A stretch of 64,000 nt of DNA, taken from NCBI GenBank assembly GCA_965222225.1, contig CBDCTK010000002.1:3168001-3232000 (forward strand), read 5' to 3'. The DNA is from Candidatus Poribacteria bacterium (GTDB lineage Bacteria > Poribacteria > WGA-4E > JAJDTR01). Positions 25,335-64,000 of the stretch are shown here, one piece after another (the first letter of the stretch is position 1; the number at the start of each line of letters is the position of its first letter). Made by a program: the position numbers and the translations under genes. The notes under the pieces are model-generated. The model was not told where the DNA came from. It was given only the letters and a program-made list of their open reading frames with translations, and made no database searches.

Positions 25335-25405
25335 GAGATCTCTATGGGAGCTCTATCGCAGTCATTATCCATTCCTTTGATCGGTCGTTATTCACTCCCT
25401 TGATC
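25335..25405 (+). repeat. Modular CTATCGC/TTATYC/TTGATC array, copy A
   Basis: GAGATCT CTATGGGAGCT CTATCGCAGTCA TTATCCATTCCT TTGATCGGTCG TTATTCACTCCC TTGATC, between the arms GCGGGGCAAG and CTCGCCTAC. Confidence 0.85.
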
Positions 25406-29057: not shown

Positions 29058-29166
29058 GAGATTTCTATCGCAGCCACTTTGGGATTTACTATCGGGACTA
29101 GCTATCGCAGTCATTGTCCATTCCCTTGATCCATCGCTATCCACTCAGTTGATCGTTCGTTTGATC
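29058..29166 (+). repeat. Modular array, copy B
   Basis: GAGATTT CTATCGCAGCCA CTTTGGGATTTA CTATCGGGACTAG CTATCGCAGTCA TTGTCCATTCCC TTGATCCATCG CTATCCACTCAG TTGATCGTTCGT TTGATC, then CCCGCCTAC. Confidence 0.85.
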
Positions 29167-29239
29167 CCCGCCTACGGGTTTGGTGCTTCACGGCTTTCCG
29201 TTCAACCCAACGTTGTACGTTTGTACAAAGTCAAGCTAA

Positions 29240-30878: not shown

Positions 30879-31013
30879 AGATTCTCCAATGTCAATCAGA
30901 CAGCAGCTACATAATGGTATTCAGTTCATTCGCTAATGTTTAGTAAGGAGGTCGCGACCTGGAGATCGCTCCTACCGACAGTTGGGTGGCGTAAGGCGGT
31001 TTACGGCTCACGG

Positions 31014-31068
31014 GGGATCTCTATCGCCTTCGCTATTCACTCAGTTGATCCTATTCGGTCGCTTGATC
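31014..31068 (+). repeat. Modular array, copy C
   Basis: GGGATCT CTATCGCCTTCG CTATTCACTCAG TTGATC CTATTCGGTCGC TTGATC, then CTCCTAC. Confidence 0.85.
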
Positions 31069-33964: not shown

Positions 33965-34170
33965 GGGATTTCTATGCAAGCACTATCGGGATTTACTATG
34001 GGAGTTCTATCGCACTCCTTATTCGGTCGTTTGATCCTTCCTTAACTGTCAGTTGATCGCTCGATATTCATTCGTTTAGTGCTCAGACTTAGAGGCTGGT
34101 GGGCAGTGCCCACCCTACAATATTCTGTCGGTTAATCCTTATTCTGTCGGTTGATCCTTATTCTGTCGTT
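33965..34170 (+). repeat. Modular array, copy D, followed by a REP and a 19-bp tandem tract of the same family
   Basis: GGGATTT CTATGCAAGCA CTATCGGGATTTA CTATGGGAGTT CTATCGCACTCC TTATTCGGTCGT TTGATC...; REP at 34098-34120; about 2.6 copies of TTATTCTGTCGGTTRATCC at 34121-34170. Confidence 0.85.
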
Positions 34171-34876
34171 AGATTCTTCAGTGGTTTGGGAGATTTAAAT
34201 CGCAGTTAATGCGTTACGACTCGAAAATTGCGTCGAAGCATGTCATAGCTTGGCTTCGTAGATGCTTTTGGCGTCGTGATTGAGTGTGCGAAATACTGCG
34301 ATAAACTGCGAATATGTCTTCGATCGCGTTCACCGCGGTACTGCGACGATTGCCCAAAACAGCGGCAGGCGCTCCGACTGGATGCCACCTAGATTCGCTC
34401 ATGCGCCGATAGTTTCGGCGCCGAAAAGGGACGAAACCCGGCGAACTGGAATAGCGGTTTAGACTCAGATTCGACATTTGGCTCAGTGGTCTTTTCTATT
34501 CTCACGTCACAAAGCGCGCACATAGGTGAACGAGTTCGACACTCGGCGGCATGCGTTGGAGGCGCGTACACTCTTTCAAAGACCGCGGGCAGCATTTGAC
34601 AGCGCCGTTTTAGAGGAAGCGCGAGTGAACGGAATCCAATTAAAACTGATGGGATTCTCGTCCCTGCAGCTCAACCCCAGAAGAAACAAGTGCACAACTA
34701 TCACTAGCCGGCATTGACGATTCGGCATCATTATACTATACCTCTGTATAGTTATCAATCTAAAACAATGGAGGAGTTGCCAGAGGGAAGTGATGGCTCA
34801 AGCTGCACATGAAATTGCGTTAATAGCTCAATCTATCCTTCGGAGACCGATTATTTTAAATACACATGTCGATATG

Positions 34877-57370: not shown

Positions 57371-57457
57371 ATTCCCGGTTGAGTTCATACTAATACCATT
57401 TCTATATATTTTCAGTGCATAAATTGCGTCAATCAAGTCGTTCCAAGGCAGGGCAAG

Positions 57458-57507
57458 GGGATCTCTATCGCGGTCGTTATCCACTCCCTTGATCTATTCG
57501 CTCAGTT
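57458..57507 (+). repeat. Modular array, copy E
   Basis: GGGATCT CTATCGCGGTCG TTATCCACTCCC TTGATC TATTCGCTCAG. Confidence 0.85.
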
Positions 57508-57565: not shown

Positions 57566-57665
57566 TAACAAGTGAACGCCAATGTTCATTTTTTGTGCAA
57601 GAGGGGCGTTGGCAGATCTCGCAACAGTGCCTGTGTCTTACAAATCTGGTAGAGCACCAGTGCTG
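57566..57665 (+). repeat. ~100-bp direct repeat, copy 1
   Basis: TAACAAGTGAACGCCAATGTTCA...TACAAATCTGGTAGAGCACCAGTGCTG; matches 63774-63872. Confidence 0.85.
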
Positions 57666-57737
57666 ACCTACCCTCCTGCTGGTAATACCATTTCTTACAG
57701 TGATAGGGTATCAATGATGTGAATTTCAGAAAAAAAG

Positions 57738-57801
57738 CTATCGCCTTCGCTATGGGATCTTCTATCGCGTTCGTTATTCACTCACTTGATCTCAGTTGAT
57801 C
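57738..57801 (+). repeat. Modular array, copy F
   Basis: CTATCGCCTTCG CTATGGGATCTT CTATCGCGTTCG TTATTCACTCAC TTGATCTCAG TTGATC. Confidence 0.85.
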
Positions 57802-58500: not shown

Positions 58501-58540
58501 GATCAACTGAACGAATAGTGAAGGCGATAGCAAATCATAG
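58501..58540 (-). repeat. Modular array, copy J (only minus-strand copy seen)
   Basis: Reverse complement reads CTATGATTTG CTATCGCCTTCA CTATTCGTTCAG TTGATC. Confidence 0.8.
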
Positions 58541-60309: not shown

Positions 60310-61161
60310 ATGAGAAAATTGTTGTGCGTTTCACTCGCTTTGCTCATCATATCGTTGTCCAACCTGTATGCCGCTTGGACCAGAGAATTCCAAGAGGGCT
60401 ACCAACTGTTGAAAGCCCTCGAAATGAATCAACTCGTCGTTGTCGGCCGCGTGTCCGGTATCGAGTATCTTACCCGTTCAAATATAAGGGGTAGCCATAC
60501 CACCGATGTTACCGTGACCGTGGACGAGACGCTCAAAGGCAGTCCGAACCTCGGCACGGATCGTGTCAAATTTATGATTAAGGGCGGTGTGGGAATCGAC
60601 ACGTTAACCGGAGAACCGATCCGCCTAAACGTTAGCTTCCAGCCCCACTTTAAACTCGGGGAGCGTGTCCTGCTCTTCCTTACCAACTCTGCCTCTAGAG
60701 ACCCCGATGCCGCCAATTACCCCCATGGTCGATACCGACTGGTGCGAGGTAAATTCGGCAAACGCCTCGTCGTCAACGGTAAGGTGTACATGCGCTATCT
60801 GGACAGCGACACCGGCAATACGCTGAAAGCTGTGGAATTGCCTCTCGATATGGCGGTAGACCTGGCAAAGGCGTTTAAGCGGGATAAAGACGCAGCCATC
60901 CTGCTCGAGAACAGCATAAAAGCGTTGGCGAAAAGCGCGGCAGATGATTTGGTCACGCTCGACTCCACCACCATCCAGAACATCAAAAGCGGCGCCAAAC
61001 AGATTCTCGATCGACCCGAAGGAGGGAATTACCATGTTCCGAACCATCGCTTTCACACTAATAGCCATCGCGATCTCGTGCGGCCTCGTATGGGCAACCT
61101 GTCACAACACGCCCGACTGTGCGGATTTAATCAACCACCTCGTTTCCGGCGACTATTTTGA
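60310..61161 (+). CDS. Secreted hypothetical protein
   Basis: Signal peptide; VV.G.V......V.E.LKG...F..GE.VLLFL pattern; 3' end overlaps the next gene. Confidence 0.65.
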   Translation: MRKLLCVSLALLIISLSNLYAAWTREFQEGYQLLKALEMNQLVVVGRVSGIEYLTRSNIRGSHTTDVTVTVDETLKGSPNLGTDRVKFMIKGGVGIDTLTGEPIRLNVSFQPHFKLGERVLLFLTNSASRDPDAANYPHGRYRLVRGKFGKRLVVNGKVYMRYLDSDTGNTLKAVELPLDMAVDLAKAFKRDKDAAILLENSIKALAKSAADDLVTLDSTTIQNIKSGAKQILDRPEGGNYHVPNHRFHTNSHRDLVRPRMGNLSQHARLCGFNQPPRFRRLF

Positions 61162-61560
61162 CGAGTCTAACAGCAATACCATAGACTACAATGTCAACAC
61201 AACGTACCACGCGGAAATGCCTAATTTAACCGCCGATGTGGACGTGGCGGCCGCGACGTGGTCCGAAGCCGAGCACACCGGACAAGAGATAGATTTTAAT
61301 CTCAATAACGCAGGTACCACAACTCAGCACGCCCACGTTCGAGATAATCGAAATGTGATCGCCTATGGCGGCACACTGCCAAGTGGATGGGCCGCCGGCG
61401 TCTATACCTGGATACAGAACGACGTCATCCTGGAAGCGGATATGATGTTCAATTACTATCTGGATTTCGAACTGCATCCGGATTGGCAGCAAGGCGATGT
61501 ATGCATCCGCAACGTGGCAACCCACGAATTCGGACACTTCGTCCACCTGCTCGATTTGGC
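61034..61560 (+). pseudogene. Matrixin-like (metzincin) metalloprotease, C-terminally truncated
   Basis: GGAGG RBS, signal peptide, DNRNVI, EADM.FN, VATHEFGH; runs directly into transposase sequence. Confidence 0.75.
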
Positions 61561-62297
61561 CCGGGTTGCCATAGTTCACCCGGATAGGTCTTGACTGCAA
61601 TTGGCCCCATTTCATCAATGCAAATTGTTCGCGTGTCCGGTGGAGGCGCGATGTACGCCGAAATTATGGCCCCCTTTTTTCCACGAACTGTTCGTCCTGT
61701 TTTTCCGCATTATGAAACCAACTCTGCTGACGTTTCCAATTCAGCCCTTCTTCAGTTATCCAGCTCCATATTGTTGAATCGGAGAGATGAATCCCTTCTC
61801 TTTCTTTGAAGCTAATTTGCAGACGTTCTAGCGTCCACAACTCAAATGGATAATCCAGACTCGACGGTCTTTGCATCGCTAAATCAATCAGTTTACTGCG
61901 AACCTCTATCGAATGCGTTTTCGGTGCGCCGCTCCGGGGTTTATCAGCAAGTCCTTCAATGCCTTCGTCGTTGAAGGGATTTTCTATCGCGCTCCTTATT
62001 CAGTCGCTTGATCGCTTAATCCATTGCGCTCCGGAAACCCCCGTTTGAATCCAGCTTGTAGGGCGGCTTTGGAACTCGTTAGTTGGTTGTCATCAATCAT
62101 ATTGACGATGAGTTGAGCTCTTTGGACGAGCTGGTGAGATTGGGTACGTGAGTTAGCTAGAGTCCTAAGTTGGTGTTCTTCTGTTTCACTAACCGTACGA
62201 ACATAATGAACTCGTTTTCCCATTATGAATTCTCCTTTCCATTTCGGTTGAATGGGCAGGAGAATTATATCATAATTACTTGCCGAGAGAACCACTA
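61548..62297 (-). mobile_element. IS630-family element remnant (3'-truncated, interrupted)
   Basis: Reconstructed RAQLI..W.KRFN.EG.EGL.DKPRSG.P..WTL..L, A6G slippery site at 61674-61680, then CIDEMGP; TA-starting end near 62297. Confidence 0.85.
61977..62012 (+). repeat. Modular array, copy G: 36-bp insertion in the IS630 transposase
   Basis: GGATTTT CTATCGCGCTCC TTATTCAGTCGC TTGAT; removing it restores WIKR-FNDEG. Confidence 0.88.
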
Positions 62298-62379: not shown

Positions 62380-63470
62380 TTATTGTTTTATAGCCCCCCA
62401 CGTTGTAGCGGCTTTGGCGTAGGGGTTGACGACGGGAATCGAGGCGCGGAAGATGCCCCCGATGCTGTGTGGGAGGTAGAATCCTTGTTCTTCGTCCAGG
62501 GCGTAGAAAGTACGGCTAGCGGTGGCGTAAAGCCGGTCTTGATGGGATATCAGCTGACCGACACCGAACTCCGGCAGGCCGGCGGGAAACCAGGTTTCGT
62601 AGCGGTCGTCAAACACCCAGATTCCCTTTTTCCGAAGCCCGGCGAAGATACGGCCGCGATGGACGGCGAGGGCCGAGATCCTCGGCTCGTGCGGCAGTCC
62701 GGCGCTAAGATCGTCCCACGCGAGTTCGCCTTCGTCCCAGCGCCCAAAGGCGTATGCGGCGCCGACGTATAAGCGATCGTCATGCGCCAGCCAATCGCCC
62801 GGCGCTCCGTAATCGGTGAGGGCACGGCGGTGGCCGCCCCAAATTGGCATCAGTTCCCATGTGTCGCCCAGGTGGGGGTACGGTATAGGTCGGGGAAACC
62901 GACAAAGGCGGAGGCCCAGAGGTAGCCGTCGAACTCGGTCATCGTATGGCTACGAAAAGCGATGTGAGTTGACACATGCGGGCCGACGTGCACCCACTCC
63001 TCGTACGGGTAGTGCCAGGTCTCGCCTCGATCGCGGGATATGTGTGTGCCGGAGTGGTAGCCCACGGCGACGACCATACGGGATTCCGTGACGAGTATTT
63101 GGTTAATATAGGGGTGGTAGATGGGGCCGTCTATGCGATCCTCCTTATCAAGCCTGGTCAGACCGGCGTTTTTTGGAGCCCATGTCTCGCCGCAGTCATC
63201 GGATCGAAACATCCCGAATTCGGTGCCGGTATAGGCGTACACGGCATCGTCGCCGATTCCAAGGCAGTACACGCGGTGCGTCATGCCGGTCGGGCGCCAG
63301 GTGTCGCCGTCATCGTCGGAGATGTAGAGTCCGGTCCGGTCGGCGGCGTAGAGGCGTTCGCCGTCGCTTTCAAGCAGCGCCGCATCAATGTTGGGCAGGA
63401 ACTCCCAGTCGGCGCGGGCGCAGGCGGTCATGAGCAGGGCGATGGCGAGAATTGGGTATAGTGTTTTCAT
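62380..63470 (-). pseudogene. Secreted BNR/Asp-box beta-propeller protein, frameshift near 62875
   Basis: S.D.G.TW repeats; one added base gives YRTPDLGDTWELMPIWG joining both ORFs; ends AATTWGAIKQ. Confidence 0.78.
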
Positions 63471-63773
63471 TTTATCCTTTCGGCGCGGATATTCGCATCC
63501 GATTCGTTCGCTAACATAGTCATCGTTACTACGAAAATGAAAGCGGTTCGCATTAAACGTCGAGTCCACATCATCGGAACGTCTCCCTTGGAGCTGATGG
63601 TTATCGGATTGATTGCGTTATTGGAGTGTATGCAAGTTATGCGCCACTATCTATCACGCGCCAAGGCTGTCCTAGTCCATAAGTTACCCTGAATTGGCAC
63701 GATCCCACGAATTGCATCAAACTCGCCCCCCGATGTGTCATGGAAACTCAATGGCGTTTCGTGATTTCGTGTA

Positions 63774-63872
63774 TAACAAGTGAACGACAATGTTCATATT
63801 ATGTACAAGGGGGCGTTGGCAGTTCTCGCTACAGTGCCTGGGTGCTACAAATCTGGTAGAGCACCAGTGCTG
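63774..63872 (+). repeat. ~100-bp direct repeat, copy 2
   Basis: Matches 57566-57665 with scattered substitutions. Confidence 0.85.
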
Positions 63873-63902
63873 GCTTAACTAGCGGTAGGTTCGGCTGAAA
63901 AT

Positions 63903-64000
63903 GGATCTCTATGGGATTTCTATCAGGATTTGCTATCGCATTCGCTGTTCGCTCATTTGATCGCCACGGGCGCTCTTAAAGGCTGGTGTGATCTCTATCG
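63903..64000 (+). repeat. Modular arrays, copy H (63903-63962) and start of copy I (63990-64000, cut by the window end)
   Basis: GGATCT CTATGGGATTT CTATCAGGATTTG CTATCGCATTCG CTGTTCGCTCAT TTGATC; then GATCTCTATCG. Confidence 0.82.

Follow-up and report, generated by a model that had tools for sequence, protein, structure and literature searches.

The 36 nucleotides at positions 61976-62011 of the window, the 64,000-nt stretch of DNA analysed here, very probably represent one copy of a non-autonomous mobile element, 35-36 nt long and abundant in this Candidatus Poribacteria genus, inserted before a TC dinucleotide in the HTH-coding region of an IS630-family transposase gene after that IS had diverged, without duplication or loss of target bases. 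The window corresponds to C2:3168001-3232000 of genome G000 (5.70 Mb, two contigs). On the forward strand the inserted unit reads GGGATTTT, then CTATCG and, at its far end, TTGA, with the minus strand being the strand that folds. Its limits are given by the empty sites in a paralogous element and in the two closest related IS copies (L002 and L003), as well as by its score against the matrix of the repeat family. The target TC lies directly 3' of the insert on the forward strand (62012-62013), is found in the two closest IS copies where their site is empty, and agrees with three other empty/filled pairs.

The host of this insertion is a decayed, 3'-truncated IS630-family element on the minus strand (61549-62274, 726 bp including the insert), whose extent was delimited by homology to the paralog and to copies in the related genomes G005, G004, G008, and G003. 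The N-terminal part of the transposase is encoded on the minus strand, with the HTH region and the beginning of the DDE domain region present, and the right end at 62274 is the only IS630 end inside the window. The sole paralog in the genome (C2:2540901-2541590, 77% identical) runs on into a DDE region of full length and so shows the window copy to be cut short at 61549; because of this truncation, the window copy yields only HTH pieces in domain searches (HTH_33, 24 bits). Assignment to the IS630 family was made through the relative L002, a G005 copy with an uninterrupted ORF in which the usual HTH-region motif is read straight through, and which matches HTH_32 (62 bits) and DDE_3 (65 bits). 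NCBIfam model NF033545 (IS630) was the best family for both L002 ORF pieces, at 65 and 77 bits, each piece alone falling below the whole-protein cut-off of 100 bits. At the truncated end, an ORF with a HEFGH metalloprotease motif (60944-61594, forward strand, from the ORF list) runs into the IS, where homology begins at 61549. One metatranscriptome contig from public run X15 has 169 extra letters between the IS630 fragment and this metalloprotease ORF (window 61549-61557), so the truncation junction varies between strains. Further to the right, on the minus strand at 62380-63569, two ORFs of 156 and 239 codons meet at 62850 and resemble a single gene broken by a frameshift.

The window copy and its paralog each have one 1-nt frameshift of their own, which in the window copy is a 1-nt deletion between 62043 and 62044 (minus strand), visible as a single-column alignment gap with a change of frame. 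The reading frame also changes at an A6G5 run (61655-61675, minus strand) that is identical in the window copy and the paralog; since the run is kept in the paralog, the change may reflect programmed ribosomal frameshifting and not a mutation. The frame change at this run occurs in L002 as well. Of the 40 related genomes, G005 carries this IS630 in at least ten copies, nine at 87-91% identity to the window copy and one at 80%, while G004, G008, and G003 have one copy each. From the number and similarity of the G005 copies, the element seems to have been recently active in that genome, whereas G000 keeps only two decayed copies.

A first-pass annotation of this DNA had proposed that a 36-bp array unit cleanly interrupts the transposase, and had suggested aligning it to other IS630 copies in order to define the empty site. 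This alignment showed exactly 36 extra bases in the window copy. The paralog differs by a single 36-column gap at the insert, L002 (91% identity over the element) and L003 (in G004) have one 36-nt gap each, and for L004 (in G008) two HSPs abut in the subject with query bases 78-113 skipped. These are three of the four related copies aligned; the fourth, L005 (in G003), aligned on its left side only. Nine further G005 copies, at 685-691 nt compared to the 726-nt query, were judged to lack the insert by length only. The empty site in both L002 and L003 reads GTTGAA|TCGCTTAATCC, and therefore the parsimonious insert is 61976-62011 with TC next to it. The annotated length of 36 bp was thus correct, and the annotated borders (61977-62012) have to be moved one base to the left. 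There is no flanking duplication and no target base has been lost, as had been claimed and as the empty sites of L002 and L003 agree. Excision of 61977-62012 does restore the HTH-region reading on the minus strand, with the frame translation in agreement, and the in-frame TGA attributed to the insert is present in the minus-strand frame. An intact homolog carrying the same 36 bp would have spoken against an insertion; the intact L002 lacks them, its flanks being contiguous.

Within the insert, a 28-nt core is found ten times in identical form in the genome, the whole 36-mer only a single time, and the first eight bases are unlike those of every other copy of the unit. Because all other IS copies examined lack the unit, and because the insert is one of 1039 members of a family, the comparison supports its arrival after the window IS copy diverged from its relatives. 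The annotated order of events, with the repeat arriving after the IS, therefore stands, although what arrived was a single unit and not an array. The further claim that the insertion inactivated a mobile element was only partly upheld. A unit with an in-frame TGA does lie in the transposase gene, but it cannot be named as the inactivating cause because the 1-nt deletion after 62043 and the truncation at 61549 are also there.

The stretch of DNA in the window is present in public runs of at least five studies. Contigs from runs X1, X2, X10, and X15 (four studies) contain both junctions of the filled site with no differences, and none of the contigs from these four runs joins across the empty site. 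As contigs drop rare variants, these runs do not establish that the empty allele is absent, and with only the filled site recovered, no present-day polymorphism is demonstrated for this insertion. In each of the four runs the contigs break inside the unit, with one piece ending at 62010 and the next beginning at 61987 or 61988.

The unit belongs to a family of 1039 copies, 35-36 nt in length, in the 5.7 Mb genome. This count comes from a position matrix applied to the whole genome at a threshold of at least 30 bits, which found no match in a 2-Mb shuffle. The strict motif CTATCG-N18-TTGATC occurs 782 times compared to 0.67 expected from base composition, and an nhmmer search gave 1016 genome matches at E <=0.001. 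With such an excess over expectation and no match in the shuffle, the family is not a product of chance. It is also diverse, comprising 310 stem haplotypes and 585 distinct 28-nt cores. The units have the properties of a very small mobile dispersed repeat, in that they are shorter than 40 nt, high in copy number, and dispersed; are exactly present or absent at homologous sites (IS630 paralogs, two intergenic sites, and one ORF); and are inserted into other repeats and into themselves.

The window itself contains nine direct copies and one inverted copy of this repeat at a length of 36-38 nt. On the forward strand these include the reference copy of repeat family D1 (57754-57791), the units at 57457-57494 and 31013-31050, the innermost units (29094-29131 and 33999-34036) of two nested arrays (29060-29167 and 33965-34060), a unit together with the 3' fragment of an outer unit (25345-25405), and a unit preceded by 5' fragments (63925-63962). 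A unit in the opposite orientation, belonging to inverted pairs I1 and I3, lies on the minus strand at 58501-58536. Eighteen nucleotides beyond the unit at 31013-31050 there is a TTGA|TC site that is empty here and has a 35-nt unit in G005. At 34121-34177, beside a GTAG-type REP, three 19-nt copies of the 3' half of the unit (TATTC..TC..TT.ATCC) stand in tandem, an arrangement that goes beyond nesting alone. In addition, a non-coding repeat of 100-170 nt, with eight genome copies at 78-90% identity and no Rfam match, is located 30-60 nt upstream of unit arrays in the window (63700-63877 and 57566-57670).

Although the units vary in sequence, four column pairs covary, namely (7,23), (8,22), (11,19), and (12,18), numbered from the C of CTATCG. 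These pairs are Watson-Crick in 73-94% of the 782 strict units and have mutual information of 0.47-1.22 bits, compared to no more than 0.26 bits for all other pairs of variable columns. Mismatches in the pairs are one-sided, with 317 A-C against approximately 34 G-T on the forward strand, and forward-strand A-C mismatches are G-T wobbles on the reverse strand. Likewise, two conserved TC/TC mismatches correspond to tandem G-A pairs on the reverse strand. Evaluated with RNA parameters, the covariation structure has a mean energy of -4.2 kcal/mol for the reverse strand (94% of units are below zero) compared to +1.25 for the forward strand; neither of them is stable under DNA parameters. Free folding of single-stranded DNA was no better than for shuffled sequences (z from -1.3 to +0.8 in eight folds of four units on both strands), and nothing in the window matched Rfam at the gathering thresholds.

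Insertion of units into other units provides a large set of junctions. For 108 of the 1039 units, removal of 36 nt leaves an outer unit complete again, a higher number than with removal of 34, 35, 37, or 38 nt, and 121 nested cases have a restored score of at least 35. Junctions in these 121 cases cluster just in front of outer positions 9 (CGCab|TC, 25 cases), 16 (TAT|TC, 13 cases), and 5/6 (36 cases), and head-to-tail junctions at TTGA|TC are also found. For the position-5/6 class, the outer unit is expected to read GC and reads TC after the insert. As T occurs at position 5 in only three of 1039 intact units, the T either arrives with the element or replaces the G. In total, about 36 nested cases, together with copies in the RAYT-linked REP, show insertion before GC rather than TC, with the G reading T afterwards, a change that is beyond a simple cut-and-ligate picture. 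The target rule is thus insertion 5' of TC, or sometimes of a GC that then reads TC, and beyond the TC the flanks contain no more than 0.37 bits per column. A preference of the units for the 5' foot of hairpins was not supported, as the 34 nt downstream of 639 isolated units average -1.9 kcal/mol, compared to -2.0 in controls 150 nt away.

Orthologous sites in related genomes follow the same rule, and at each of the four clean empty sites the junction has TC and no duplication. The 24-36 kb region of the window is syntenic in all nine congeners, with genes 84-92% identical. One intergenic site, GATCGC|TCCTACAG, is empty in G009 and has a 35-nt unit in G001 and G004, and another, CGCTTGA|TCCTCC, is empty in G000 (window ~31066) and has a 35-nt unit in G005. 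Coding DNA is also entered. Crude ORFs cover 82% of the genome yet hold 173 of the 1039 units, the other 866 lying outside, and approximately 25 units are found in ORFs of at least 240 codons. These leave the frame unbroken (for example C2:2910569, 3738216, 2965616, 3909956, and 3117009), and two paralogs share a 13-residue insert (RSSEGTASAIEIP). The one long-ORF unit that was compared with orthologs, C2:2921271-2921309, lies in a 2418-codon ORF at the site CTTGA|TCCC, where 36 nt are added and the frame is kept. Its flanks are 99% identical to G005, which has no unit at this place. The aligned site lacks the unit in G005, G002, and G003, while the aligned segments of G009 and G001 did not span it; by coordinates, all five related genomes give two matching pieces with about 70-80 query bases skipped, and a separate 36-nt difference lies in the same ORF just upstream of the unit. 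Clean presence/absence between sister species and this in-frame copy support the view that unit activity is probably continuing. The annotated proposal of an ongoing process that can hit coding DNA is borne out to this extent, with the IS630 site itself being only filled in the four public runs.

Beyond single insertions, the arrays contain many 5' or 3' fragments without a partner, which means that the arrays owe their form to deletion or recombination as well. As such 5' and 3' fragments are equally frequent, polar 5' truncation of the kind left by target-primed reverse transcription was not supported. At least 144 of the 1039 units abut halves of recognisable REPs, including GTAG-type REPs, and the classical REPs of this genome are themselves targets of the unit. 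The same holds for a CRISPR array next to cas1, where many units are inserted in the 37-nt repeats. This array, located outside the window (G000:C2:2705500-2708000) and downstream of cas1, has 35-39-nt spacers and a start-to-start distance of 72-76; its repeats are interrupted by units of both orientations, and a 240-nt block is tandemly duplicated. The Cas1 orthologs of four related genomes (G001, G003, G004, and G027) have single in-frame stop codons, which suggests that the CRISPR system may be decaying in this group.

The orientation of units follows local GC skew, at 218:132 where the skew is positive compared to 110:280 where it is negative (odds ratio 4.2). This test used 740 clusters and 25 kb on either side, on a skew curve that is weak and has several peaks, and it gives the direction of the bias relative to skew and not relative to replication. 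The bias is similar within gene-orientation strata, and in spacers between tandem genes no link was found between unit orientation and the direction of the neighbouring genes (258 same, 305 opposite). Selection after insertion, rather than the insertion mechanism, could produce this bias. Across genomes, the strict motif occurs 439-1195 times in all ten genomes of the genus and 166-195 times in all four genomes of a second genus, which belongs to a different family. Counts in the other 27 genomes of the order (eight other genera) are 0-3, with a reversed control pattern at 0-1. A collection of species-representative genomes contained at least 101 matching stretches, and all of those listed are from Candidatus Poribacteria.

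Two readings other than insertion of a mobile unit were considered. An ancestral presence of the 36 nt in this IS630 lineage, followed by their loss from every other copy, is so improbable as to be nearly negligible; we found no support for it, the paralog and every related copy examined lack the 36 nt, these contain an in-frame TGA, the intact L002 reads through with the usual motif, and the 36 nt match a family of about 1000 copies outside IS elements. Slippage, template switching, or gene conversion among pre-existing repeats, with units that do not move, would fit the many unmatched fragments and tandem partial copies in arrays, such as those at 34121-34177. We nevertheless consider this very improbable, as the sites in the IS630, the 2418-codon ORF, and the REP share no flank similarity with donor arrays and each gained an exact 35-36-nt unit before TC. 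Moreover, the first eight bases of the IS630 insert are unique, and thus no donor with shared flanks is evident. With insertion of a mobile unit as the preferred reading, the alternatives that have to be weighed concern the enzyme. A Y1 (HUH) transposase of the IS200/IS605-RAYT kind, moving units as single-stranded DNA at the replication fork and making them an unusual class of REP, would agree with the absence of target duplication, the insertion beside a fixed short sequence, the conservation of fold and not of sequence, and the orientation bias relative to GC skew. Five Y1_Tnp matches exist in the genome; one at 3080372-3080716 and a fragment at 3560325-3560519 have inverted units on both sides, and a third has a unit 151 nt downstream. 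However, the units at the intact RAYT (3080255-3080728) sit inside its cognate REP, CACCTGTCGCCCC.CTGGGGCTT, which flanks RAYT orthologs in three genera, so that their adjacency is explicable by REPs being targets. RAYT orthologs (70-77% identity) are present in seven of seven genomes of the unit-free genus g6, and two of the four unit-bearing genomes of g4 have no RAYT match at E <1e-10. The unit has neither a GTAG nor a CGTC tag by column frequencies, and its folding strand is mostly on the C-rich strand, the opposite of the folding-strand preference described for IS608. None of the five Y1 matches is specifically linked to units, and the RAYT is disfavoured as the mobiliser, being flanked by a different REP and having orthologs in unit-free genomes; a Y1 enzyme is on this evidence unlikely.

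The Cas1(-Cas2) integrase of the resident CRISPR system, acting off-array on a spacer-sized substrate, emerged from a screen for ORFs with units within 200 nt on both sides. There are 84 such ORFs, with the units inverted in 32. Of these 32, 20 were scanned against Pfam, with 11 ORFs below 150 or above 700 codons omitted and the RAYT scanned separately. Besides Cas1, the 20 ORFs encode metabolic enzymes, one HD-domain protein, one NYN-domain protein, and three proteins without a family. The HD-domain protein has 405 residues (G000:C2:1543861-1545078), and the other has 522 residues with a C-terminal NYN nuclease domain (G000:C2:3894459-3896030), both with inverted units within 200 nt. Inverted units lie on both sides of the cas1 gene (PF01867, 235 bits), 75 and 37 nt away, the unit length of 35-36 nt is close to that of the resident spacers (35-39 nt), units favour hairpin repeats including CRISPR repeats, and 11 of 14 unit-bearing genomes, compared to two of 27 others, have a Cas1 ortholog with at least 79% identity. 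These ortholog counts rest on two unit-bearing genera and so are not independent, and CRISPR repeats as targets would alone put units near cas1. Spacer integration duplicates the target repeat, and no duplication is found at the four clean empty/filled pairs; furthermore, unit-rich G002, G006, and G008 have no close ortholog, two unit-free genomes have one, and Cas1 contains stop codons in the four genomes named above. We regard an integrase of this kind as quite unlikely. Reverse transcription of an RNA copy of the unit into the target is distinctly improbable, even though RNA parameters favour the covariation structure on one strand (-4.2 kcal/mol on average, negative in 94% of units) and tandem G-A mismatches are a common RNA motif. 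Arrays show no excess of 3' over 5' fragments (198 at +1, 180 at -1), orientation is not tied to gene direction (258 same, 305 opposite), and the locus is present in RNA runs, where DNA carry-over is possible.

The unit would be moved by a trans-acting protein able to recognise one of its strands in folded, single-stranded form. The recognised strand would be GATCAA..GA..GRATA..GA..GCGATAG with its two tandem G-A mismatches, and if only fold-keeping copies were propagated, the covariation would be explained. After examination of the RAYT/Y1 and Cas1 leads, no enzyme was tied to the units, and we tentatively put it at a little less than an even chance that the mover is something not yet described. 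A more specific proposal, possible but rather doubtful, is a near-minimal element moved by machinery not yet linked to transposition. This would be either an off-array Cas1-type integrase acting on a spacer-sized selfish substrate or an undescribed enzyme reading the G-A-mismatched hairpin. In either case the element would bring its terminal T, such that TC and GC targets both end as TC, and its arms would be complementary because a folded intermediate is proofread or copied.

Among known systems, the small dispersed repeats of Nostoc punctiforme and its relatives (SDR1-8), reportedly described by Elhai et al. in 2008 (Genome Res 18:1484), come closest as a precedent. SDRs resemble the Poribacteria unit in being tens of bases long, dispersed, regarded as mobile, located inside other repeats, and arranged in tandem or nested clusters, with no encoded enzyme known. 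They belong to another phylum, are about 21-27 nt long compared to 35-36 nt here, and are not known to be related to the unit in sequence. For the unit, the analysis documents a fold with four covarying pairs and tandem G-A mismatches, TC or GC as the target, and one copy that lies in frame within a large ORF. SDR5 is described as possibly using the HIP1 palindrome as an insertion site (PMC5861425).

REP/REPIN sequences and RAYT transposases (Bertels and Rainey 2011, PMC3116915; Di Nocera et al. 2013, PMC3733652) are likewise structured repeats of 20-40 nt in hundreds of copies, mostly intergenic, clustered, and thought to be moved in trans. Unlike these, the unit has no GTAG/CGTC tag, is not a stable palindrome (its fold being no better than shuffles), is not tied to a RAYT, since the RAYT is flanked by another REP and has orthologs in unit-free genomes, and is inserted singly and not as the inverted doublets of REPINs.

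IS200/IS605 elements make no target duplication, insert beside a short fixed sequence, have folded ends, and show a replication strand bias. The unit shares insertion without duplication and a fixed TC beside one end (four of four clean empty sites), but is one 36-nt hairpin rather than two distinct ends, has no linked transposase, has its target 3' on the forward strand, and shows the G-to-T change at GC targets. Rickettsia palindromic elements, at ~100-150 bp, are tolerated in frame in protein-coding genes, whereas the units are 36 nt (12 codons) and mostly intergenic (866 of 1039 outside crude ORFs). As in CRISPR spacer integration, the insert is of spacer length, but no empty/filled pair shows a target duplication, and the absence of a target-site duplication also distinguishes the unit from a MITE, for which no parent IS with such ends was noticed either, short of a systematic search. 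A literature search found no description of such repeats in Poribacteria in the portions of text it returned.

Finally, mobile DNA this small is, as far as the literature search shows, otherwise represented only by the SDRs of one cyanobacterial family (Nostocaceae), with no mechanism reported there, and the Poribacteria unit is a variant of this rare, poorly understood kind of mobile DNA. It offers exact empty/filled pairs, among them one within a transposase gene and one that keeps the frame of a large ORF, as well as a defined dinucleotide as target and a sharp phyletic contrast within one order between 14 genomes with hundreds of copies and 27 with almost none; together, these make a search for the enzyme tractable by comparative genomics. 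The host is an abundant, uncultured sponge symbiont in which the units break short-read assemblies at every copy. As they disrupt IS elements, REPs, and CRISPR repeats, the units may shape both genome defence and repeat turnover, and the IS630 insertion provides a natural before-and-after view of one of the smallest known bacterial mobile elements.
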